Below, one piece after another: positions 6,572-50,191 of a DNA stretch of 64,000 nucleotides (its first letter is position 1; every line of letters starts with the position of its first letter). Under the pieces are notes generated by a model. The model was not told the origin of the DNA, ran no database searches, and was given only the letters and a program-made list of their open reading frames with translations. Both the position numbers and the translations under genes were made by a program. Origin of the DNA: an uncultured archaeon (GTDB lineage: Archaea > Iainarchaeota > Iainarchaeia > Iainarchaeales > GCA-2688035). Where the stretch lies: assembly GCA_964354805.1 (NCBI GenBank), contig CAYHBD010000030.1, positions 6,800 to 70,799 of the forward strand, in the 5' to 3' direction.

Positions 6572-7466
6572 AAAAATTTCGGGATGTATTCCTGCGTTGG
6601 TTACGCCGATGCGCGAGGATGGCAACAGGCTGAATCACGCAATAAACTTTGATGCTTTGCGCGAATTGGTTGATTATGTAATAAAAGGCGGCGTGAATGG
6701 AATCGTTGTTTCAGGCTGCACCGGGCATGCTGCCTCACTTACAGCAGCTGAGCAGGTTGATTTAATTGAAAAATCAATGGAGATGGCAGGCAGGGTGCAG
6801 TTCATTGCTGGCGATGGAAGCAACTGCACCAGAGAGGCAATTGACTTGGCGAAAAAAATTGAGGATGTTGGAGTGAAAACTCATTTGCAGATTTCTCCCT
6901 ACCAGAACAAGCCAACGCAGGAAGGCCTTTATCAGCACTATGCCGCGATTGCGAATGCAATCGAAGGGGAAATAATTGTCTACAATGTTCCCGGCAGGAC
7001 AGGGAAGAATGTTGAGCCTGAGACTGTTGCCAGGTTGGCCAAAGAATTCAGCAGCATAATTGCTGTAAAGGAAGCATCAGGCAACTTGCAGCAGATAAAG
7101 AAAGTGATTGAATTGACTCGCGATTTCAAATTTGATGTAATAAGCGGCGATGACCCTTTAACTCTTGAAATAATCAAAGCAGGGGGCACTGGCTGCATTT
7201 CTGTTGCGGCAAACATTGCGCCAAAACAAACAAGCAAAATGATTTCACTTGCTTTGCAGGGAAAATTTGACAAGGCAAAAAAAGAGGATGACGCGCTAAG
7301 GGAGCTGTACAGGGTTCTTTTCATTGAAACAAACCCCTGCCCCGCACACTACGCTTTGAGAAAGCTTGGCATTGCTGTCGGGGTTCCGCGCTTGCCATTG
7401 GTTGACGTAATGCCGGAAACAGCAAAACAGATTGATGCAGCGCTCCTGCAACTTGGATTGATTTGA
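6558..7466 (+). CDS. dapA: 4-hydroxy-tetrahydrodipicolinate synthase
   Basis: PALVTPM, YNVPGRTG and the KEASG active-site lysine context. Overlaps the dapB end by 14 nt. Confidence 0.9.
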   Translation: MPMSKKISGCIPALVTPMREDGNRLNHAINFDALRELVDYVIKGGVNGIVVSGCTGHAASLTAAEQVDLIEKSMEMAGRVQFIAGDGSNCTREAIDLAKKIEDVGVKTHLQISPYQNKPTQEGLYQHYAAIANAIEGEIIVYNVPGRTGKNVEPETVARLAKEFSSIIAVKEASGNLQQIKKVIELTRDFKFDVISGDDPLTLEIIKAGGTGCISVAANIAPKQTSKMISLALQGKFDKAKKEDDALRELYRVLFIETNPCPAHYALRKLGIAVGVPRLPLVDVMPETAKQIDAALLQLGLI

Positions 7467-7544: not shown

Positions 7545-9077
7545 TTGGACGGATTGGATAAATTTGAGGAACCCTCTTATAGCAGCGCTGAAATAAAGAT
7601 TGAGGGAGAGGGCTTTGGCGGCGGGTTTGGGTCAGTAAAAAAATTTGTGCCTTACATTATTGCAATCGTTGTTCTGGGCGCAATTGCTTTGTTTGCATAC
7701 GATTTCTTCATTGGCTCGGTTTCCAATGTCTCAATAACGATTAAGGACACTGAGGGCACTGTTTTGGAGGACAGTAGCATAAAGCTTTTTGCGGCTGGCA
7801 GCAATGAGCCGTTTTTTACCGGCAGCGATGCCTCAACTTACACTGTTGCAATGCGGCCAGGCAGCTACAGGGCTGAAGTAAAAGCTACAGGCTATGCAAT
7901 AAAAACAGTCCAGATTGAATTGGGCGCAAACGAAAACCAGAAAACAATTGAATTGGAAAAAGACTTTGATGTTAAAATAACTGGCTTTGAACAGGCTTTT
8001 CCTGCAAAATTGTTTTTAGGGCAGGCAACAACAGTGCTGGTAACAGTGGAAAACAAATCTGATAAAAGCGCTACAGTGCAGTTAGTGCTTGAAGACGGCT
8101 TGAAAGAATTGGTTGAAGATGATGAAACAGGCGCTGTAACAATTGCCGGCAACAGCAGTGCAACAATAAATATTGCAATCAATGTGAAAACCACAATTAA
8201 GATAAAGAACGAAAAGGATGGCGACAGCAAAAAAGCTGTTGTAAGGGTGAAATACACCAAAAAGCAGGAATCACGCAGTTTCACTCTTTTCCCGAACCCT
8301 GCCGACAAAATAACGCTTGGCAGCGCAACTTTCAGCGTAAAAGCCAGGGAAGGCCTGAACAAGCAGAGCAAAAAAATAAAAGTGACAAACAGTAATAAGT
8401 TCTCAATTGAGGACTTGAACTTGAGCATTGAAATCACAAGCAGCACGAGAAACGATGAAGCCCAGGTGCTGCAATGGTTCCAGTTCACTGAAATAGCTGA
8501 CGAGCCAAAGCCACAGCTGATCAGCATTCAAAGCATTGCAGCAGGCAGCTATGTTGAAAAGGAACTGCAGGTAATCGCGCCATTGAGCGCAAAAAAAGAG
8601 CCCGGAATAAAGGGAAACATTGTTTTAAGCGCTGGCTATCTGCAGCAGCCGAAAAAATCAACCCTTACACTGGAAATAGCTGAAGAAGCAAGCTATGGCA
8701 TTGCATTAACCCTTACCCCAAACCAGCCATATGAAATTGTATGGGATGACACTCAAAGAAAATACGAGAAAAAAATTGTAACACTGAAAGTGAAGAACTC
8801 AGGGCAAATTGTTTTGCAGAACATTGTTTTGTCAATTGAAAACGATGATGATTGCAGCACTAACTGGCTTTCTTTCCTTGAAAGCACAATTGATTCCTTG
8901 GCTGTCGGCCAAACAAAGGAACTGAAAATGGAGGCAACAGCGCCAATAGTGCAAAGGGGCAATGAAACCAACATGTACTGCAACGTGCATTATCTCTTTG
9001 ACAATCCTGTGCAACTGGGGGAATACGTTGAAGACACATTGCCTGCATTCATTCAAATAAGGCCAGAGGCAGAGTAA
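7545..9077 (+). CDS. Membrane-anchored surface protein with repeated beta-sandwich-like (CARDB/NEW3-like) segments
   Basis: N-terminal TM helix (PYIIAIVVLGAIALFAYDFFIG) followed by T/S/K/V-rich beta-strand-like repeats. Composition resembles the 33608 ORF. Confidence 0.5.
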   Translation: MDGLDKFEEPSYSSAEIKIEGEGFGGGFGSVKKFVPYIIAIVVLGAIALFAYDFFIGSVSNVSITIKDTEGTVLEDSSIKLFAAGSNEPFFTGSDASTYTVAMRPGSYRAEVKATGYAIKTVQIELGANENQKTIELEKDFDVKITGFEQAFPAKLFLGQATTVLVTVENKSDKSATVQLVLEDGLKELVEDDETGAVTIAGNSSATINIAINVKTTIKIKNEKDGDSKKAVVRVKYTKKQESRSFTLFPNPADKITLGSATFSVKAREGLNKQSKKIKVTNSNKFSIEDLNLSIEITSSTRNDEAQVLQWFQFTEIADEPKPQLISIQSIAAGSYVEKELQVIAPLSAKKEPGIKGNIVLSAGYLQQPKKSTLTLEIAEEASYGIALTLTPNQPYEIVWDDTQRKYEKKIVTLKVKNSGQIVLQNIVLSIENDDDCSTNWLSFLESTIDSLAVGQTKELKMEATAPIVQRGNETNMYCNVHYLFDNPVQLGEYVEDTLPAFIQIRPEAE

Positions 9078-9121
9078 TCCGCAAAAACTGTTTCTTATTT
9101 GCCAAATTAGAAAAAGCAGCT

Positions 9122-9526
9122 TCAAAGCGCCTTTTTAATCAATTCCTTTAGGCTTGCGGGGGCTTCAACTTCTTTTTGCAAAAACTCTTCTTTTGAGAAC
9201 CATTTTAGCTGGGCAATCTTCTCGTTTTCCTTGTGTGGCAGAACAGGCTTCTGGCTGCCTGCATCGCATTTGAAAACAGTGTTCACAACCTGCGCTCCAT
9301 CGCTCAAGCGCATGAAGTGGAAAACCCCAACAGGCTCTTTTGGCTCAATCTTTAACCCTGCTTCCTCCCAAACTTCCCTTTGCAGTGTTTGCATTGGCTC
9401 TTCGCCGTGCTCTACTTTTCCGCCAGGCAAATCCCAGACCTTTTTCCTTCCAACCTCTAACTCAAGCGCAAGGAATTGGCCATCCCTCACAATCAGAGCC
9501 TTTAAGGCAGCAAAAACATCAGGCAT
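9122..9526 (-). CDS. NUDIX hydrolase
   Basis: Complete Nudix box: GGKVEHGEEPMQTLQREVWEEAGL. Confidence 0.85.
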   Translation of the reverse strand: MPDVFAALKALIVRDGQFLALELEVGRKKVWDLPGGKVEHGEEPMQTLQREVWEEAGLKIEPKEPVGVFHFMRLSDGAQVVNTVFKCDAGSQKPVLPHKENEKIAQLKWFSKEEFLQKEVEAPASLKELIKKAL

Positions 9527-9708
9527 AATAAAAAAATGAATGGAAAGGAAAATTTAAAAAGGAAAGTGAAAGAAAAAAAAGAACAAAAATTACAGAGATG
9601 GCTTCCAGAACAAGCCCATATGCCCAACAATGAAAAGCGCCATATTTTTAGTGGTTGCCAAAGATGCTGGGCATTGCTTGAAATGCCAGCTTCCTGCTGC
9701 TCAAAATG

Positions 9709-10668
9709 TCAGCTTCTTGCAATTGAGGCGATTTCTTCAAGGCTTTGCGCTTTCTCAAACAGGCGCATTTTTTCTGGGTTCGATGCAAAAAACCTGACTG
9801 CCTGTGTCTTCATCCTGCCCAAATAAGCGCTGATGCCGAACTTTTTGCACAATTCAAGGTATTGCAGGAAAGCCTGCTCCCTGGACAGGAGGTTTGCGCC
9901 ATCAGGCGCGCTTTTCCCAAGGCTTTTTTCCAGCGGGAAAAAAGGCTTGTTGCCCAGAATTTCCGCAAAAATTCCGGGATTGCCTATTGCCGCACTGCCA
10001 ACCATTGCAGCATCACAGCCGGTCTTTTCAAGCATTCGCTCAAAGCTAGGCTTGTTGATTACACCGCCATTCCCTATTACAGGAATGCCAACAGCTTTCT
10101 TGACGCGCTTTATTGCCACAAAGTCAACCAGGCCCCTGTTTTCCTGCTTAATGGTTCGCCCATGCACAGCAATTGCCGAAGCGCCCGCTCTTTCAATCTG
10201 CTTTGCCAGCTTGATTGTGCGCAAAACATTAGGGTCAGACCTTATTTTTGCAGTAACAGGCTTTCCAAGGACATGCCAGCAGGAAATGATTTCGCAAATT
10301 CGCGCAGGCCTCCTCAAAAGCGCGACGCCTGCCCCCTGGTTAAGCACATTACCCGAAGGGCATCCCAGGTTCAAATCCAAAAAATCGAATTCCTTTTCAG
10401 CAATAAGCAGTTCAACCGCCTTTTTCATGCTTTCAACCCTTGCCCCAAAAACCTGCATTGCCAAAGGCCTGTCCTCACCGCAGGTCTGGGCAAGCCTTTT
10501 GACAGAAAGATTGTTCCTTATAAGGGCCTCAGAATTAATCATTTCCGAATAGCACAAGGAAGCGCCCTGCTCCCTGGCCAAAAGCCTGAAGGCAAGGTCA
10601 GTAACCCTGTACATTGGCGCCAAAACAAGCCTGTTTTCCATTTTTGTGCCGGCAATGCTGAAATCCAT
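9709..10668 (-). CDS. dus: tRNA-dihydrouridine synthase (Dus family)
   Basis: LAPMYRVTDLAFR, DLNLGCP and AVHGRT motifs. The start is set at MDFSIAG. The track ORF extends to 10764. Confidence 0.8.
   Translation of the reverse strand: MDFSIAGTKMENRLVLAPMYRVTDLAFRLLAREQGASLCYSEMINSEALIRNNLSVKRLAQTCGEDRPLAMQVFGARVESMKKAVELLIAEKEFDFLDLNLGCPSGNVLNQGAGVALLRRPARICEIISCWHVLGKPVTAKIRSDPNVLRTIKLAKQIERAGASAIAVHGRTIKQENRGLVDFVAIKRVKKAVGIPVIGNGGVINKPSFERMLEKTGCDAAMVGSAAIGNPGIFAEILGNKPFFPLEKSLGKSAPDGANLLSREQAFLQYLELCKKFGISAYLGRMKTQAVRFFASNPEKMRLFEKAQSLEEIASIARS
9908..9949. repeat. Hairpin-repeat family copy inside the Dus coding region, in frame
   Basis: GCGCTTTTCCCAAGGCTTTTTTCCAGCGGGAAAAAAGGCTTG. A 9-bp stem CTTTTTTCC/GGAAAAAAG. 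The core is near-identical to copies at 52784-52815 and 58038-58070. It encodes NKPFFPLEKSLGKS. Confidence 0.75.
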
Positions 10669-10831
10669 TACAAAAACAATACAGAAAAAGACTATATTCC
10701 AATGCCCTAATGCACAGGCTTTTGCCGGAAAGCAGTGAAAAACAAAGGCAAAACCCCAAGCCATCTTCGCTCAGCTTTTAATAAAAGCCGGCAAAAACAG
10801 CCTCGCTTTGCTCGGCGAGCTCGATGGAATA

Positions 10832-10946
10832 AGCCCCGGGAGGGATTTGAACCCTCGACCCCCGGCTATCTCGAATTTTTCTTTTCGCACGCCTTTTTCT
10901 AAAAGGCTTTTACGAGGTCGGTGCTCTACCACTGAGCTACCAGGGC
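10832..10946 (-). tRNA. tRNA-Thr (anticodon CGU) with a 43-nt canonical 37/38 intron
   Basis: Manual cloverleaf: acceptor GCCCTGG/CCGGGGC, D arm GCTC-AGTGGTA-GAGC, anticodon loop CTCGTAA after splicing, T arm GAGGG-TTCAAAT-CCCTC. BHB motif: central helix CTCG/CGAG flanked by 3-nt bulges TAA and ATA. Confidence 0.85.
10868..10910 (-). other. tRNA-Thr intron, made of hairpin-repeat family sequence
   Basis: Sense sequence AAAGCCTTTTAGAAAAAGGCGTGCGAAAAGAAAAATTCGAGAT, with a 7-bp hairpin GCCTTTT/AAAAGGC followed by GCGAAAAG. Confidence 0.8.
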
Positions 10947-11013
10947 GCTTCTTTTCTTTAAAGAAAATTGAATGCAAAACGCTTTTTAATCCCTTTTCCT
11001 TAATTGGTGTAGA

Positions 11014-11946
11014 ATGCCCAAGGATGACCAGCAAAAGGTTGAAGTTTTTCTGCGCGAATTTGTTTCAACTCTTACTGAACAACACGCAAAAGAAATTGAT
11101 TTTATTCTTCTTTTCGGCAGCGCTGCAAGAGGCGAATTTGTTCTGGGAAAAAGCGATGTGGATTTAATAATCCAAGTGAAAAGCGATGAAAAAAGAAAAG
11201 AGGTTGAAGCGTTTGCCGAAAAGGTTTTCTGGCAGCTTGACAGAAAGCACGGCATGCAGCTAAAGCGCGTTTGTAGCACCGGCATTGGGGCAAGCGTTTT
11301 GGAGAATGCAGTTAAAGCGCTTGAAGCCCGGGCGCGGTTGTACAAGCCATTTGAGGTTTTTGGCCCAAAAGACATTGACTGGCGCAGAGGCATGATTAAA
11401 AGGCTTGACTTGCTGCCGGGCGCTTTTCTGGTTGCAAGCCAGCTGACGCTTTTGTACAAAATGAAGAATGAGGGAAAAATTTTATTCGGCAGGGATATTA
11501 GAAAGGAAATAAGGCCGAGGTTCACGCTTTGGGAGAAGCTGAAAAGCCTTTTTGTTCCCCAAAGCATTTCTTTTGCAGCACTGGCACTTTCGCTTTTCTT
11601 GCCAAAAAAAGCAGTTGCTTATGCCGTAAAAGCAATTTTTTATGAGGTTGAATCAGTGAACCTTTTCCTGCAGAACAAAATACCGAAAAAAGGAAAGGCC
11701 TGCTTTTTTGCAAGGGCAACCGAATTCAGAGACCGGTTATTGGATGATCTGCGGTTCTACATTGAACTGCGTTTTGGTTTGCTTGGCGAACAAAAGCTTG
11801 CTTTTGTAAAAAAGGCTGCCGCAGTTAAAAAGAACGGCTTTCAGGGGGGCAGGGTTGCCGCACTGCGCTTTTGCTTTAATGCATTTTGGGTCATTTACAA
11901 CTGCAATTCAAACATTATCCTGAAAACAATTTTTGCAATTGCCTGA
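11014..11946 (+). CDS. Nucleotidyltransferase-domain protein (minimal NTase fold) with a C-terminal extension
   Basis: LFGSAARGEFVLGKSDVDLII matches the GS-x(9-10)-DxD NTase signature. Confidence 0.65.
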   Translation: MPKDDQQKVEVFLREFVSTLTEQHAKEIDFILLFGSAARGEFVLGKSDVDLIIQVKSDEKRKEVEAFAEKVFWQLDRKHGMQLKRVCSTGIGASVLENAVKALEARARLYKPFEVFGPKDIDWRRGMIKRLDLLPGAFLVASQLTLLYKMKNEGKILFGRDIRKEIRPRFTLWEKLKSLFVPQSISFAALALSLFLPKKAVAYAVKAIFYEVESVNLFLQNKIPKKGKACFFARATEFRDRLLDDLRFYIELRFGLLGEQKLAFVKKAAAVKKNGFQGGRVAALRFCFNAFWVIYNCNSNIILKTIFAIA

Positions 11947-12004
11947 AAAACCCCTAACAAAATGTTTAAATATTAGAAACCCGTTCTTTTATCAGGTGAT
12001 TTAA

Positions 12005-12517
12005 TTGAACCAGAGCGGACAGGCTTATAGTGTCTTCAAGTTGCTGATTGCCGCAATCATTGCAGTAGCAATCCTTTACATACTTATTTCAATAATCGGC
12101 GGAATCAATATTTTCGGCAGCGATGTTCAAACCGTTGCAAAGCAAATCATTCAAAAGCAGGTTGACATGCCTGGCCAGCTGGACACAAGCACAGCAGCCG
12201 TTTTCAAAGCAGGAACAAACCTGGCGCCAAGCGCACTGGTTGGAAACAGCGGCCTGACCCCAGACCAGATTTGCCTGTATAAGGGTGACCTGGTTGACAA
12301 CCAAGCAGTGGAAGTTACAGGTAGCACACTAATGCAAAACGGGACAACTGATTTAACAGTGAAAATAAGCGTCATGTGCCACAAGGCAAACGCTTTAGTG
12401 GATGCCCTTGAAGAAGTAGGATTGCCGATTGATTTTGGCGACACAACCACCGGAACTTGTGGATGCAACCTTGATACGCCCCAGAAATGCTGCGTGGTAA
12501 TGCTGAGATTTGCTTAA
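12005..12517 (+). CDS. Type IV pilin-like protein (class III signal peptide)
   Basis: N-terminus MNQSGQAYSVFKLLIAAIIAVAILYILISIIGG: a short charged leader, a G|Q site, then a hydrophobic helix. SD AGGTGA lies upstream of the TTG start. Confidence 0.55.
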   Translation: MNQSGQAYSVFKLLIAAIIAVAILYILISIIGGINIFGSDVQTVAKQIIQKQVDMPGQLDTSTAAVFKAGTNLAPSALVGNSGLTPDQICLYKGDLVDNQAVEVTGSTLMQNGTTDLTVKISVMCHKANALVDALEEVGLPIDFGDTTTGTCGCNLDTPQKCCVVMLRFA

Positions 12518-12556
12518 GCCCTTCTTTTTCTTTCTTTTTTTTCATTTTTGCTGTTA

Positions 12557-12582
12557 TTGGCTTATCCAAGCTTGTAAGCCAA
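12557..12582 (+). terminator. Candidate hairpin after the first pilin gene
   Basis: TTGGCTTA-N10-TAAGCCAA, a perfect 8-bp inverted repeat followed by an AT/T-rich tract. Confidence 0.3.
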
Positions 12583-12748
12583 TTAAATTTTCCTGCAATT
12601 TCTTAACTTTGAATACAAAACAATTAGTTTCAATTTACATTCAAAAAAATCGCATTAATAATTTCAATTTTTCAATTAAATGCCATTTAAGCGAAAACCC
12701 GCCTATCCAAAAAAATTAAATATAGCTTTTACCACAATTATTCTTATT

Positions 12749-12922
12749 ATGTTGGCAGTTGTTAAACGGGCGCTCGGCGAGAGGAGGGCTCAGAGTGAGT
12801 GGAGCAGCGTTTACATGCTGATTGTTTTAATTATCGCTGCCCTTCTTTTGATTGCGGTAATAAAGCCGATGTTCAAGCAAAGCCAGAGCATTGTGCAGAA
12901 AACACAGCCGAAAGCAAGTTAA
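12749..12922 (+). CDS. Small pilin-like protein (class III signal peptide)
   Basis: MLAVVKRALGERRAQSEWSSVYMLIVLIIAALLLIAVI: a basic leader, an A|Q site and a hydrophobic helix. The track ORF starts at 12680. Confidence 0.4.
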   Translation: MLAVVKRALGERRAQSEWSSVYMLIVLIIAALLLIAVIKPMFKQSQSIVQKTQPKAS

Positions 12923-13039
12923 AGAGCCCGAGGAAAAGGAATCCTTGGGAAAAAAAATTAAAAGGTGCAACTAAAATGCCGAACACAACACTGGCAAAGA
13001 GTGCCCAGGACCCAAAATGAATAATAAAGGTGCAAAGAA

Positions 13040-13861
13040 ATGCTGAACAGAAAAGGCCTTGCGAAGCAATTTTCCCAAAGCTTTTTTTCCGAAGGAAAAA
13101 AAGGCTTAGCAAAGCAATTTTTCCCAGGGGTTTTTTGCACGCGAAGCAATTTTCCCATCTTGCAAAACCCAAGGTTTTGCGAGACCTCGCAAAAGCGAAG
13201 CTTTTGCAAGGAGGCTTTTTTTGCAACGGCAAAAAAAGGCTTAAGCGAAAAAGGCCGAGCTGAAAGCCGTTTTCCCTGGGATTTTTTTGCAACAGCAAAA
13301 AAAGGCCAGGAGAGCGCGCCATTTGAGCTGCTGGTTGCTGTAATAATAATGGGCTTTGTCATATTCATTGGAACAAGTGTAATGCAGCAGGTAAATTGCG
13401 AGAAATGCAAGGGCGAAACCAATGCAAAGCTGGATCGAATGGCAACCGCGTTACAGAATGCTGACGAATCAGGCAGTATTCAACCAAACGTAAGTTTTTT
13501 TTTAAGCGGCTGCTTCAACCAACAGGAAGAAAAAATCTGGATTGAGGACGAAGACGATCCCCAAGTGTGTGCTGCCTATCATTGCGGTGAGAAGCAGTTA
13601 TGCACTTTGCTGAAATACTATGGTAATGGCTGCGGCGGGTTCAGCATCATAAAGTGCCTGGATATCACCCCTGACGCCGATTTTCCTTCCATATCAGGGG
13701 GCAGGTGCGAAGAAAGAGATGGAATGCAATTAGTGGATTTCGAGAAAAGGGAGGAGCCGATAGCAACAGGGGGCAACAAGCAGGGCAACTATTTGCTGTG
13801 GAACAAGACAGGGCAGGGCGACACTTTTTCAACAATCTGCGCTTACAGGAAAGAGGGTTGA
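13040..13861 (+). CDS. Cys-rich type IV pilin-like protein whose leader peptide carries a 249-nt repeat array
   Basis: ATG 13040 with SD AAGGTG. Removing 13059-13307 gives MLNRKGQESAPFELLVAVIIMGFVIFIG, a canonical class III signal peptide. The ORF also reads through the array without a stop. Confidence 0.6.
   Translation: MLNRKGLAKQFSQSFFSEGKKGLAKQFFPGVFCTRSNFPILQNPRFCETSQKRSFCKEAFFATAKKGLSEKGRAESRFPWDFFATAKKGQESAPFELLVAVIIMGFVIFIGTSVMQQVNCEKCKGETNAKLDRMATALQNADESGSIQPNVSFFLSGCFNQQEEKIWIEDEDDPQVCAAYHCGEKQLCTLLKYYGNGCGGFSIIKCLDITPDADFPSISGGRCEERDGMQLVDFEKREEPIATGGNKQGNYLLWNKTGQGDTFSTICAYRKEG
13059..13307. repeat. Array of hairpin-repeat family modules (249 nt) flanked by the direct repeat AAAAGGCC
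   Basis: AAAAGGCC occurs at 13051-13058 and 13300-13307. Perfect hairpins: 13081-13090/13094-13103 (10 bp), 13162-13169/13173-13180 (8 bp), 13215-13224/13229-13238 (10 bp), 13282-13290/13295-13303 (9 bp). Confidence 0.85.
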
Positions 13862-13868
13862 TTCAACC

Positions 13869-14531
13869 ATGCTTGGATTCACTTTAAGCAAACTGAATCT
13901 GCTGATTTTGGTGACAGCCTTGTTTGGGATAATTGCATTCTTTTTATTTACGCTAACAGACATGATGGTTGCCAGGTCGGCACAGCAAATGGTCAATGAC
14001 CTTGTTGAAAGAACCAGCGGCATTATGACACCGAGCGTTGACTGCTTTGAGGAAACGGTTACAATACCAGAGGAAATAACCTACTTCAGCGGAAAACGCT
14101 TCTATTACGTAATGAAGATATCAAGGGAGCCGGCTGAATACAACTCGGAATATCTAAGCAAATTGATTTTCAAGGTTGCGGCAAGAAAAGAGCAAACCAA
14201 ATTCATTGCAACAAATAGCTATGACATGAATGCAGAAATCATGCTTTACCAATGGCCTGTTGCAGAAATTAGAACTAACCTAAAAGAGCAAAGCAGCATT
14301 ATACTTGATCCAATGAACGAAACTACTGCAAGCAATTCAGTTAAGTTAATAAAAGAGGTTTATAATAGAAAAAATTTCCTGCACGTAATTGCCTGCAATA
14401 CCGACCAAGGGCAGTGTGAAATGAATGAGGGTTATGCAGGCTGCTGCGTAAAAAAATGGAGGGGCGTTGAATCAAGCTGCCTGCCGCCTGCAGAGAATTG
14501 CGAAAACTTGAGCTGCGATACAAGGGGGTAA
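13869..14531 (+). CDS. Pilin-like protein
   Basis: N-terminus MLGFTLSKLNLLILVTALFGIIAFFLF resembles a G|FTL prepilin motif followed by a hydrophobic helix. The C-terminal part is Cys-rich. Confidence 0.45.
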   Translation: MLGFTLSKLNLLILVTALFGIIAFFLFTLTDMMVARSAQQMVNDLVERTSGIMTPSVDCFEETVTIPEEITYFSGKRFYYVMKISREPAEYNSEYLSKLIFKVAARKEQTKFIATNSYDMNAEIMLYQWPVAEIRTNLKEQSSIILDPMNETTASNSVKLIKEVYNRKNFLHVIACNTDQGQCEMNEGYAGCCVKKWRGVESSCLPPAENCENLSCDTRG

Positions 14532-14536
14532 AAAAA

Positions 14537-15037
14537 ATGAAAAACGGGGGTTTTTTGGGTCCAATTGGGGATGATTTGCCGAGCCTGATTCCGCTGCTTT
14601 TTGCTTTAATGCTTTTTTTTTATGCTTTTACATCTGCTTGGAATAATTTTGACAGGAGGAATGAGGATTTTGCCGATGACCTGGCAGTGCTCAGGGCAAG
14701 CAATGCATTGAGGGGAAACAATTATATTGCGGGAATTGAAAAATTCAATGAAAACTGCGAGACAGCGAAAGGAACCCAGAGAATGCACTTTTTGGCCGGA
14801 TTGCTGCCCTTGCCTACAGGGAAAGATGAGCAATTTGTTGGAATTGATACTGAAAAAATAGTCAGCGGCGATCAAAGCTTTTTTGAAGACTTTCAATGCA
14901 GCAGCACTGAGGAAATACCCGTGCTGGAAAGCGAAAAAAGCGTTGTTAGGTTCTTTCCTGTTGCCTTGGAAACAAAAGAGGAAAACGACAAGTTTTATGT
15001 AAAGCCGATGTTGCTGGTGGTCATTGCATGGAAATAA
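14537..15037 (+). CDS. Pilin-like / membrane-anchored hypothetical protein
   Basis: MKNGGFLGPIGDDLPSLIPLLFALMLFFYAF. Start chosen at ATG 14537. The track ORF starts at 14498. Confidence 0.4.
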   Translation: MKNGGFLGPIGDDLPSLIPLLFALMLFFYAFTSAWNNFDRRNEDFADDLAVLRASNALRGNNYIAGIEKFNENCETAKGTQRMHFLAGLLPLPTGKDEQFVGIDTEKIVSGDQSFFEDFQCSSTEEIPVLESEKSVVRFFPVALETKEENDKFYVKPMLLVVIAWK

Positions 15038-15849
15038 AGCTTGGCGAAAAAGGTCCTGTTTTGCGAAGCCTATTTTCCCCAGGCTTTTGCAACAGCAAAA
15101 GGCTGTTGCGAAGCAAAACCCATTTCCCTGGGATTTTTTGCACGCGAAGCAATTTTCCCAAGGCTTTTTCACGAAGTGAAAAAGGCTTAAGCGAAAAAGG
15201 CCAGTCCAGTTTGACTGATTCCATGTTTTTCCTGGTAATAGCCAGCATTTTGAGCACTTGGCTTTTCTATTCAAGCGCAACCTACGGCCTGACAATAGAC
15301 CAGCAAATTTCAAGGCAGGGCAGGGAGGAATACACCAAGTCTGCGCTTGAAACAATTTTGTACAGCAGCGCGCCGAGGCAGGCAGGCCTTTCTTTGGAAG
15401 AAGCATCAGAGATTGACTACCTGCTTGCGGCAATAAAAGAGGACTACGCTGATGACACTGAACTGGATGAAACAAAAGCAATTCTTTTCCAGAACATAAA
15501 TGCCGTAATGCAGCCGCTTGCAACAAACAGCAACTACCTTTTCTACATATATATTGCTCAAAAAAATAAATTTGTTGTCACTTTTTTGTACGCAAGCGAA
15601 GCAAAAAACGATGACGGCTGGAGCTTAACCGGCAACAAAATTGTTTTTTCCTGCGTGCCGCCAAGCAAGCAGGCAGTGGAAGAATTCCTGCTTACGGTTG
15701 GCAGGATGTCTGTCAGCAACAGCAGAATTCAGCTGCTTGAATCAAAAGAGCCGGCTCCTGACAGATACGATGCCCTAATCACTTTAATCACTTGGATTCC
15801 AACGCCAGTTGATGAAAGCGACCTAAACTGCACTAAATTCACTGGCTGA
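15028..15849 (+). CDS. Type IV pilin-like protein whose leader peptide carries a 147-nt repeat array
   Basis: ATG 15028 with SD GGTGG. Removing 15056-15202 gives MEIKLGEKGQSSLTDSMFFLVIASILSTWLF. The ORF reads through the array in frame. Confidence 0.6.
   Translation: MEIKLGEKGPVLRSLFSPGFCNSKRLLRSKTHFPGIFCTRSNFPKAFSRSEKGLSEKGQSSLTDSMFFLVIASILSTWLFYSSATYGLTIDQQISRQGREEYTKSALETILYSSAPRQAGLSLEEASEIDYLLAAIKEDYADDTELDETKAILFQNINAVMQPLATNSNYLFYIYIAQKNKFVVTFLYASEAKNDDGWSLTGNKIVFSCVPPSKQAVEEFLLTVGRMSVSNSRIQLLESKEPAPDRYDALITLITWIPTPVDESDLNCTKFTG
15056..15202. repeat. Array of hairpin-repeat family modules (147 nt) flanked by GCGAAAAAGGTC / GCGAAAAAGGCC
   Basis: Direct repeats at 15044-15055 and 15191-15202. 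Hairpins at 15084-15090/15095-15101 and 15164-15172/15176-15184. The 27 nt at 15134-15160 are identical to 13131-13157. Confidence 0.85.
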
Positions 15850-16546
15850 ATTTTTTCCCGCAATCAGGACAGACTACTGTTTCAATGCTGCCAATCCTTT
15901 CAACCTTCTTCGCGCAAGAATAACAAAAAGCTGTTCCGCACTCAGGGCAGAAAACCACTTTGCTTGCAGGCTTTGCGCATTTCGGGCACTGCTGTTCCGC
16001 TTCACCAAGATCGCCCAAACTGAATTCTTCACCTTCTTCCTTCTGCACTACACTCTGCGCTCCCTTCTTTTCCTCTGCAAAAATATCCTCAACACTCAAA
16101 GAAGCGAGTTCTTTAGCTTTATCACCCTGCGATTGCCCGGCAATTTGCTTATCCGCTTCTTCAAATTCAGACCATTCCTTTTCATCGCCCTCCGCTGTCT
16201 CCTTTTTCCCTTCCACGGATTCCCTGCCTCTTCTCCTTTCAATCTGTTTGCTGGCCTGCTCCCTTACATCTTTGTCCTTTAATTGCTGGAAAATGTTTTC
16301 TGCAATCTGGTCGTACTCGGCTTTTTCAGGGTATCTTTTGTGCTCTTCCCTGAATTTCCTCACTTCCTGCAAAGTCAAATGCATTGTCACATCCTTATCA
16401 GCCGCCTGTTTAGGCTGATCTTTTGGCATCTGTTCAAACAAATAGTCGGCAACGCCGCCAACTTCCTTTTCGGCTGCCAAACCACCCTTTTGTTCAGCAC
16501 CCTGCCTGTAAAAGCGCTTCATCCTTCTCGGAATTTCCTCAGCCAT
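15839..16546 (-). CDS. Acidic hypothetical protein with a C-terminal zinc-ribbon
   Basis: C-terminus CPKCAKP...CPECGTAFCYSCAKK...CPDCGKKF. Start set at MAEEIPRR, which avoids overlap with glyS. Confidence 0.5.
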   Translation of the reverse strand: MAEEIPRRMKRFYRQGAEQKGGLAAEKEVGGVADYLFEQMPKDQPKQAADKDVTMHLTLQEVRKFREEHKRYPEKAEYDQIAENIFQQLKDKDVREQASKQIERRRGRESVEGKKETAEGDEKEWSEFEEADKQIAGQSQGDKAKELASLSVEDIFAEEKKGAQSVVQKEEGEEFSLGDLGEAEQQCPKCAKPASKVVFCPECGTAFCYSCAKKVERIGSIETVVCPDCGKKFSQ

Positions 16547-49411: not shown

Positions 49412-50191
49412 TTACAGCAGTTTCCTTATCTCTTTCCCTTTGCGCATTGCAACGTCAAGGCAGTTTTCTATCTCGGCTGATGTGAATGCTCCGCCCAAGC
49501 CTTTTTGGAAAGCGCAGAACAAATTGTCCTCTGTTGTTGCGCAGCTGAACCTTGCCTCCATTGCCTTTTCCTCTACAAGAGCCGGGTCCAAAACAACTTT
49601 GCCCCCGATTTTTGCAAAGGTTGAAAGCAGCGGTTTTCTGCTCAGGTGCAGCTTGCCCGCAAATTCCCCTTTAACTATCTTGTCTTCCTCCAGCTTTGGG
49701 TACTTTGTTTCAAGCAGTGCGGACATTGCCGCAATGCTGCTTGCGTCAAACAGGTTTCCGTCGTCGTTCATCATGTACAGGTCAATGTACACCATCCAGA
49801 CTTTTTCCTTTTCAACAATGCACAGCTTCTTGAAATCAATTGTTTTGCTTTCCCTAATGCCCCTGTCAACAACCCTTGCCAGCTCTGTCGCCTCCTCTCT
49901 TGGAGGCCCTGACTCAAAGCTAGGCGAAGCCAGCGGCAGGAATTCTGCTCCAACGCTTATACTGCCTTCGTCAGGCATATCTGGGAATGGCGTAGCAGGC
50001 TCCATTTTAATGCCTGCGATCACGTCCGTTTCTCCGAGCAAAACCCTTGCTGAACCGTTTGCGTTCTCGCTTATGTTGTGCTGGATTTTCACTTCCCTGT
50101 ATTCGTCAACTTTTCTGGCATCCAGCCTTTTCCCTTCTTTTATTGCCTCTATTACTTTGTCGCTCTTCAGAGCCCAAATCGCTTCTTCCAT
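49412..50191 (-). CDS. rrp42: Exosome complex component Rrp42
   Basis: RNase PH-like: GKRLDARKVDEYREVKI...ANGSARVLLGETDVIAGIK. Follows rrp41. Confidence 0.85.
   Translation of the reverse strand: MEEAIWALKSDKVIEAIKEGKRLDARKVDEYREVKIQHNISENANGSARVLLGETDVIAGIKMEPATPFPDMPDEGSISVGAEFLPLASPSFESGPPREEATELARVVDRGIRESKTIDFKKLCIVEKEKVWMVYIDLYMMNDDGNLFDASSIAAMSALLETKYPKLEEDKIVKGEFAGKLHLSRKPLLSTFAKIGGKVVLDPALVEEKAMEARFSCATTEDNLFCAFQKGLGGAFTSAEIENCLDVAMRKGKEIRKLL

Follow-up and report, generated by a model that had tools for sequence, protein, structure and literature searches.

A small two-hairpin repeat within the interdomain linker codons of an iainarchaeal tRNA-dihydrouridine synthase gene: a probable in-frame insertion

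Introduction

How does the gene for a conserved archaeal enzyme come to carry a copy of a dispersed palindromic repeat within its coding sequence, and what becomes of such a copy at the level of mRNA and protein? The question is raised by a 64,000-nt stretch of DNA (hereafter the window; positions 6,800 to 70,799 of contig CAYHBD010000030.1, assembly GCA_964354805.1) from an uncultured archaeon of the Iainarchaeota/Diapherotrites lineage, in which the gene encoding tRNA-dihydrouridine synthase (Dus) contains one of five aligned copies of a repeat family. The assembly, here called G000, is a metagenome-assembled genome of 1.38 Mb in 49 contigs with a completeness of 88.5%, and no second Dus was found in it. 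We analyzed the repeat copy, the alleles of the gene in related genomes, the predicted structure of the enzyme and the repeat family at large. The reading that we consider very probable is that the codons of the interdomain linker of dus received a copy of a two-hairpin, non-autonomous repeat, which would be translated there as an extra loop and carried along as a tolerated passenger.

Results

A complete two-hairpin repeat copy lies within the dus coding sequence

The core of the repeat, CCCAAGGCTTTTTTCCAGCGGGAAAAAAGGCTT, occupies 33 nt of the + strand at 9916-9948 within the 319-aa open reading frame (ORF) of Dus, where no match is expected by chance (0 in 100 dinucleotide-preserving shuffles). 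The presence of this near-consensus, in-frame core and the peptide it encodes had both been stated in an earlier note on this DNA, and both were borne out: the minus strand reads ...NPGIFAEILGNKPFFPLEKSLGKSAPDGANLLSRE at the core and ...GNPGIFAEILGNKPFFPLEKSLGKSAPDGANLLSREQAF... across the repeat region. The span of 9908-9949 given there has to be corrected: it is shifted by one base from the codon grid and takes in no more than a part of the feature, whose complete copy extends over 9896-9948 (Table 1). Likewise, the 14 extra residues named in that note are too few; compared with orthologues the protein has gained 18, which correspond to two hairpins and not to the core alone.

The copy is written in the family's TTTTCCCAAGGC... 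orientation, and the Dus mRNA reads AAGCCUUUUUUCCCGCUGGAAAAAAGCCUUGGGAAAAGCGCGCCUGAUGGCGC. Its 53 nt run, in coding terms, from K241 to the second base of the codon for A258, and the net gain amounts to 54 nt or 18 codons, with an extra peptide of approximately F243-L260 and the reading frame kept. There is no stop in the frame used, and five of the six frames are open. The first hairpin belongs to an xGCC-loop-GGCx type of module that precedes TTTTTCCC in many other copies too (for example gccgaaggc, gccgttaggc and atgccatcaggcat), while the second has a stem of 13 bp with a single G-G mismatch. In the Dus mRNA, RNA folding places a U6 run ahead of a strong hairpin at this position.

Next to the copy lies a short, remodelled junction containing AGGTTT (AAACCT on the coding strand), which is similar to the terminal AAGCCT of the element. 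Relative to the empty alleles described below, it has 4-5 mismatches in about 12 nt, as against a divergence of about 7% elsewhere in Dus. The alignment accommodates nearly equally well one gap of 54 nt, with 5 mismatches, or an element of 53 nt with a compensating 1-nt gap a few bases downstream, with 4 mismatches.

Table 1. Coordinates of the features discussed in the text. Plain numbers are window positions; C16 denotes a contig of the assembly.
Feature	Position	Strand	Basis or remark
tRNA-dihydrouridine synthase (Dus) gene	9709-10668	minus	319 aa; ORF and Pfam PF01207
Complete repeat copy, 53 nt, two hairpins	9896-9948	+ (antisense to Dus)	Aligned to the empty alleles (L041, L045) and the double allele (L042); family census
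Hairpin 1, GCGCC-ATCA-GGCGC	9896-9909	+	Followed by spacer GC-TTTT-CCC at 9910-9918
Hairpin 2, conserved flanks AAGGC-T6-CC / AGCG loop / GG-A6-GGCTT	9919-9948	+	RNA fold shows hairpin
Remodelled junction	9883-9895	+	Codons N259-L260-L261-S262 on minus strand
tRNA-Thr(CGU) with 43-nt intron at 37/38	10832-10946	minus	Rfam tRNA, 53.7 bits; gene missed by ARAGORN
Elp3 repeat copies	C16:63124-63155 and C16:64318-64345		Absent from 10 orthologues

Orthologues and close alleles point to an insertion

All 19 Dus orthologues from related genomes lack the 18 residues at the exact point. Among them, the Dus of the repeat-rich genome G016, which shares 83% amino-acid identity, is uninterrupted. Linker lengths were read in a Dus alignment of 76 rows that includes the window sequence. 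The insert was missing from 74 of the 75 other rows, and of these 74 repeat-free homologues 50 have a linker of 8-9 residues at the insert position, the unusually short length also seen in iainarchaeal Dus. The remaining 24, which are distant and DusB-like, have 15-20 linker residues that are apparently unrelated to the repeat peptide. The linker is longest in the window Dus (26 residues) and in the protein P0001 (44 residues). P0001 and P0002, both from a large protein collection, are very close relatives, each 94% identical to the window Dus outside the insert; P0002 lacks it, whereas P0001 has the insert and 18 further residues, or 36 extra residues in total.

The same picture emerged at the nucleotide level. 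An empty site, GGCAAC AAACCG ATTGCC AGG, is present in locus L041, whose gene is 92.9% identical to that of the window, and a second one, GGCAAC AAACCA ATTGCC AGG, in L045 (86% identity). The filled site of the window reads GGCAAC [AAGCCTTTTTTCCCGCTGGAAAAAAGCCTTGGGAAAAGCGCGCCTGATGGCGC] AAACCT CCTGTCC AGG, with the insert flanked by AAGCCT, its own end, and by AAACCT, the native Lys-Pro codons. Three further loci, L042-L044, which come from three independent assemblies and two data sources, have the same junctions as the window together with a second module of 54 nt. This module again comprises two hairpins and is nested in the first between AAGCCT and TGGGAAAA; its left junction (AAAAAAGCCTCCTTGCAAAACC...GGTTTTGCGAG) is a module combination that is found at four other loci of this genome. 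Close relatives thus display zero, one or two modules in Dus. These comparisons indicate that the repeat in Dus is an insertion and does not reflect a deletion elsewhere, in line with the internal coding insertion that had been proposed: it is absent from all 19 orthologues of related genomes and from the close empty allele L041, and among the orthologues compared none without the repeat shows an equally long homologous peptide.

The locus in L042 is 92% identical to the window over 3.9 kb, and all indels longer than 20 nt between the two are repeat modules (+54 in Dus, +55 in the intron of the adjacent tRNA-Thr), save one of 24 nt that is intergenic. Because nearly all large indels between these two sequences are modules of the family, the family appears to have been active recently. 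The 53 nt of the element are identical between the window and L042, while divergence over the gene as a whole is 6.7%. We considered constraint on the sequence of the insert as an explanation and set it aside, since the 3' third of Dus diverges by only 3%, so that about 1.6 changes would be expected in the element and their absence is not significant (P(0) ~0.2). An attempt to order the gain events from site patterns was likewise dropped: with L045 as outgroup, informative sites in the three Dus alleles were split 11:8:11 and clustered in blocks, as in a star-like or recombinant history.

The intergenic indel of 24 nt lies at 9672-9696, just past the Dus stop; it is present in the window and missing from L042, and it does not resemble a module of the family.

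The gene appears intact, and the insert lies in an interdomain linker

The Dus ORF matches its Pfam family with 197.8 bits (cut-off 20.4, E=3e-58), its catalytic-type residues (C103, K141, R143 and H169) show little or no variation, and the frame is open across the insert as far as the normal stop. In comparisons with the two closest alleles, the ratio of nonsynonymous to synonymous substitution rates (dN/dS) was 0.10-0.12 N-terminal of the insert and 0.18-0.24 C-terminal of it; between the two insert-bearing alleles it was 0.11 upstream and 0.18 downstream. Synonymous divergence was approximately 0.28 upstream and 0.12 downstream of the insert. The gene therefore appears to be intact, with purifying selection acting on the coding sequence to either side of an insert that has persisted in two lineages.

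We modeled the protein with AlphaFold2 from the 76-sequence alignment, which gave a mean predicted local distance difference test score (pLDDT) of 93.5 and a predicted template-modelling score (pTM) of 0.90. The model and a Foldseek search indicate a TIM-barrel catalytic domain followed by a C-terminal helical domain, and the top Foldseek matches of the model are the crystal structures 1vhn, E. coli DusB (6ei9), human Dus2 and the T. thermophilus Dus-tRNA complex (3b0v), with template-modelling (TM) scores of 0.74-0.80. In this model the insert sits between helix 233-237, which ends the barrel, and helix 263-276, with which the C-terminal domain begins. It is the sole weak stretch, with a pLDDT of 54 for residues 241-250 and 58 for residues 251-260 as opposed to at least 94 on either side. 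We infer that the insert is translated as an 18-residue flexible surface loop rich in Lys, Ser, Gly and Pro. This low-confidence loop, confined to the insert, agrees with the surface-linker site at the boundary of barrel and helical domain that the earlier note had named. Because such a loop would merely lengthen a linker that already varies between 8 and 20 residues in other Dus proteins, the insert-bearing enzyme is probably still functional, and the insert is presumably a tolerated passenger and not an adaptation.

The repeat family is mostly intergenic but enters other coding sequences

A strict pattern search of the assembly returned 49 matches, while a reversed control pattern returned none; a less strict scan, in which the interior had to be palindromic, yielded 89 copies. 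The unit, about 53 nt long, can be written as [xGCC-loop-GGCx] - T4-5CCC - AAGGC-T3-7 - inner stem - loop - inner stem - A3-7-GGCTT. Among the 89 copies, many versions of the inner stem occur (GC, CC, CAC, GCAC, CTTT, GCC, ACGC and others), with self-complementarity kept. By our own approximate gene calls, coding sequence makes up about 87% of the genome, yet 68 of the 89 copies are intergenic. Tandem arrays of copies occur on contigs C10, C16 and C8. The repeat was found in 16 of the 22 genomes sampled from this taxonomic family, and seldom or not at all elsewhere in the order (2 of 18 other families sampled). G000 (49 strict matches) and G016 (88) show an expansion.

Two properties of the copies bear on their fate in or near genes. 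Stop codons are depleted: copies of about 50 nt keep 4.7 of six frames open on average, compared with 2.0 in shuffles, and at least five frames are open in 55 of the 89. Moreover, 19 copies lie no more than 40 nt from the 3' end of a gene, with a ratio of 15:4 in favor of the Dus-like orientation (AAGCCUUUUUU... in the transcript). Both strands of the repeat carry oligo-T, and the intergenic copies may act as terminators.

Dus is not the only protein affected. The gene for Elp3 (radical SAM and acetyltransferase domains; C16:62953-64635, + strand, locus L050) has two separate in-frame copies of 15 aa (45 nt) each (Table 1), the second of which is flanked by an 11-nt direct repeat, CAGCCTTTTGC; this sequence serves at once as the Gln-Pro-Phe-Ala codons native to the gene and as the inserted hairpin's 5' arm. 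In a Fic/DOC-domain protein, a copy at C8:~49840-49867 lies within the Fic domain and contributes the peptide KPFAVAKALGK; here the Pfam match distributes 93 profile positions over 136 residues. Another copy of the family lies in the ORF of isoleucyl-tRNA synthetase (IleRS). The verified copies deep within genes all share the orientation seen in Dus.

Further copies at C8:2177-2207 and C8:24864-24892 span candidate long ORFs, which would encode a polytopic membrane protein unmatched in Pfam and a protein of 974 residues rich in Ala and Pro; the copy in the latter is the sole deep intragenic one in the opposite orientation. The peptide of the Dus insert also matches a 217-residue open frame in G016 (C1:54240-54320; 63% identity over 27 residues) at a site with two copies of the family, and this may be another coding insertion.

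The insert is most likely translated, and other readings are improbable

Bulge-helix-bulge introns occur in archaeal tRNAs and in Cbf5 pre-mRNA, and a gene adjacent to dus invites comparison with them. The intron of tRNA-Thr(CGU), the only gene detected by an Rfam search of 9000-16000, has at its center a hairpin that belongs to the family and is oriented, relative to the transcript, as in Dus, and in L042 it is 55+16 nt longer through added modules. This favors a reading in which the element is removed from the Dus mRNA, for instance by tRNA-splicing endonuclease and RtcB ligase, and leaves the protein unchanged. A precedent would be the SOS splicing of animals, a hairpin-triggered, RtcB-dependent excision of transposons from mRNAs (PMC12779559). 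However, a scan of the Dus mRNA for a 3-nt bulge, 4-bp helix and 3-nt bulge found no motif that brackets the insert, though the same scan recovered that of tRNA-Thr, CUCG[UA|A]...CGAG[AU|A], as a positive control. The best candidates near the insert ends had flanking helices of 0-2 bp and the wrong lengths, and the central helix of tRNA-Thr is supplied by bases of the anticodon loop, which are exonic, and not by the repeat. In addition, the inserts of Dus (54 + 54 nt) and Elp3 (45 + 45 nt) are multiples of three and free of stops, as selection on translated sequence would leave them and as is expected only if they are translated. Since no bulge-helix-bulge brackets it, the Dus insert is most likely translated and not spliced, and we regard its removal from the mRNA as highly improbable. 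One further pairing of this type, on the minus strand at 9845-9967 (7-bp outer, 4-bp central and 4-bp inner helix, with cuts at ~9961 and 9845), was judged to be due to chance, because its 116-nt 'intron' is not a multiple of three, conserved residues would be lost, and its 5' half is engaged in a stronger local hairpin.

If the insert is translated, it might be adaptive, with a longer flexible linker or a Lys-rich peptide aiding tRNA binding or domain movement. Iainarchaeal linkers are indeed short compared with the 15-20 residues of distant DusB-like homologues, the insert peptide is Lys-rich in an enzyme that binds tRNA, and the insert has been kept while synonymous sites on both sides diverged. 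Nevertheless, 19 related genomes do with a short linker, the same repeat peptide occurs in the unrelated Elp3, Fic and IleRS ORFs as would fit a passive passenger, P0001 tolerates 36 extra residues, and, given a local rate of 3%, it is not significant that the window and L042 differ at no site of the element; we therefore hold adaptation to be very unlikely. Conversely, the element might disable or truncate Dus, either by terminating transcription at T6 and the hairpin or in a young pseudogene. Archaeal RNA polymerase terminates at oligo-T, the U6 run and strong hairpin are present in the mRNA, and copies are enriched just downstream of genes, mostly in the Dus-like orientation. Yet T runs of at least six number 696 on the sense side of coding sequence totalling about 0.9 Mb and can hardly be a strong barrier, and premature termination was rejected as such runs are not clearly avoided there beyond the expectation from base composition. 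The open frame, the conserved C-terminal domain with its dN/dS of ~0.18-0.24, and the fact that no other dus gene was found in the assembly also speak against a loss of function, to which we give as little credence as to splicing. Least credible of all is an artefact of assembly or binning in which a repeat was collapsed into Dus. Repeats are prone to misassembly, and the genome is a metagenome assembly in 49 contigs, but the same first module and junction recur in L042-L044, and the insert is in frame with flanks that are collinear with the orthologues.

Several points weigh against a translated passenger insertion as we propose it. The boundaries of the insert can be placed to within a few bases, next to a junction of unusually high divergence. 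The tree of alleles is star-like or mosaic, so that the alleles may stem from a single gain, from a gain followed by precise loss, or from recombination. The estimate of dN/dS for the C-terminal part is based on just seven substitutions, and the low pLDDT may partly reflect a shallow alignment in the insert columns; the assignment of the insert to a length-variable interdomain linker holds regardless of the latter. Retention of the 54 nt in the mRNA and their translation are deduced from sequence, and a transposase search, which covered the Y1 type only, did not identify the mobilizing enzyme.

Short flanking motifs suggest how modules could spread

We propose that the short interdomain linker of dus received, within its codons, a copy of a small two-hairpin repeat of about 53 nt, placed beside a native Lys-Pro pair (AAA CCN) that resembles the AAGCC terminus of the element, and that in one lineage a second 54-nt module was added later inside the first. 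Each module is followed by AAGGCTT, which is AAGCCTT on the Dus coding strand, and the target in Dus is AAACCN. Spread could therefore rely on short stretches of homology that the target shares with the AAGCC(T) repeats flanking each module or, alternatively, on an enzyme that recognizes the AAGCC(T) motif. Either route would account for the tandem arrays and the nested growth. In an essential-type gene, only in-frame, stop-free insertions would survive selection. The flanking repeats are AAGCCT/AAACCT at Dus and 11 nt at the second Elp3 copy; they differ in length, and in both cases the left repeat is the element's own arm.

A link to RAYT (REP-associated tyrosine transposase) or IS200 enzymes was examined and rejected. 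The assembly contains two genes for Y1 transposases (HUH, IS200/IS605-type, PF01797), at C35:614-967 (- strand, L046) and C13:1382-1729 (+ strand, L049). Both carry their own GC-rich end hairpins, which are unrelated to the AAGGCTT family, and no copy of the family lies beside either gene, although a repeat-flanked Y1 gene could have been missed in an 88.5% complete genome. Among the relatives, G015 and G016 have one Y1 gene each and none was found in G001.

A bolder form of the proposal is an active, homology-guided 'module copier', in which AAGCC(T)-flanked modules are copied into similar sites, including the Lys-Pro codons of essential genes, so that natural DPANN populations would continually gain protein-length polymorphisms of zero, one or two modules and tRNA introns would be seeded; in its boldest version, the cell would also recognize the hairpins in mRNA and cut some of them out, in an archaeal counterpart of the hairpin-triggered transposon excision mentioned above. 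We offer this as a speculation that is more likely wrong than right by a wide distance, though less improbable than the rival readings weighed above.

Discussion

In-frame selfish DNA within proteins is textbook knowledge for Rickettsia, and intragenic repetitive extragenic palindromic sequences (REPs) are known in a few bacteria. The Rickettsia palindromic elements (RPEs) are about 100-150 nt long and lie in frame in unrelated coding genes (PMC10969869, summarising Ogata et al. 2000, Science 290:347). The repeat described here shares with them its dispersal as a palindrome in conserved, unrelated genes, in frame and free of stops, with extra peptides that appear compatible with the fold, and in both cases the host genomes are small and reduced. 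It differs in its archaeal DPANN host, in its short modules of ~53 nt, and in that it is mostly intergenic, stacks and nests its modules into arrays, and builds a tRNA intron from the same family; nor did we see any resemblance in sequence, though the RPE consensus sequences were not formally compared. The parallel with RPEs drawn in the earlier note thus stands for behavior, that is, an in-frame and apparently translated insertion in a surface linker, and falls for family membership.

The intragenic GTAG- and CGTC-tagged REPs are imperfect palindromes of 20-40 nt that are mostly extragenic and, inside genes, encode 20-30 residues (Di Nocera et al. 2013, PMC3733652). Like REPs and bacterial interspersed mosaic elements, our family has a high copy number, is mainly extragenic, forms dimers and arrays, is occasionally intragenic, and varies its stems while keeping the pairing. 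In contrast, its consensus contains neither GTAG nor CGTC but has conserved ends, TTTTCCC-AAGGC and GGCTT, and we found no RAYT-type gene flanked by repeats (a REPtron), the ends of the two Y1 genes being unrelated. [quoted passage not shown] They too are short, non-autonomous archaeal repeats with an inverted-repeat structure that differ in presence between strains. However, MITEs are typically 80-300 bp long, with terminal inverted repeats that match a known insertion sequence (IS) and clear target-site duplications, while in our case no parent IS is known (Y1 only was searched) and the flanking repeat coincides with the terminal arm of the element. Finally, bulge-helix-bulge introns resemble the family in that it occupies a tRNA intron here, whereas the Dus copy has no such motif at its ends and a length in multiples of three. 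The repeat is therefore closest in behavior to RPEs and intragenic REPs and is a member of neither, given the missing GTAG/CGTC tag and REPtron, the different unit size and the archaeal host. Literature searches found no archaeal counterpart of in-frame repeats and no description for Iainarchaeota or DPANN.

What the locus contributes are three natural allelic states, junctions that could be read, a position within the modeled structure, and a search for splice motifs that was negative at the Dus insert while recovering the control in the adjacent gene. As a natural experiment with zero, one and two modules in genes that are 93% identical in nucleotide sequence, dus allows the insertion to be dated relative to speciation, its junctions to be read and its effect on the enzyme to be measured. 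For annotation, such copies explain odd length outliers among conserved archaeal proteins. More broadly, the finding bears on how ultra-small DPANN genomes tolerate mobile DNA, on how protein linkers grow, and on how one repeat family may supply both protein insertions and, as in the adjacent tRNA-Thr, tRNA introns.

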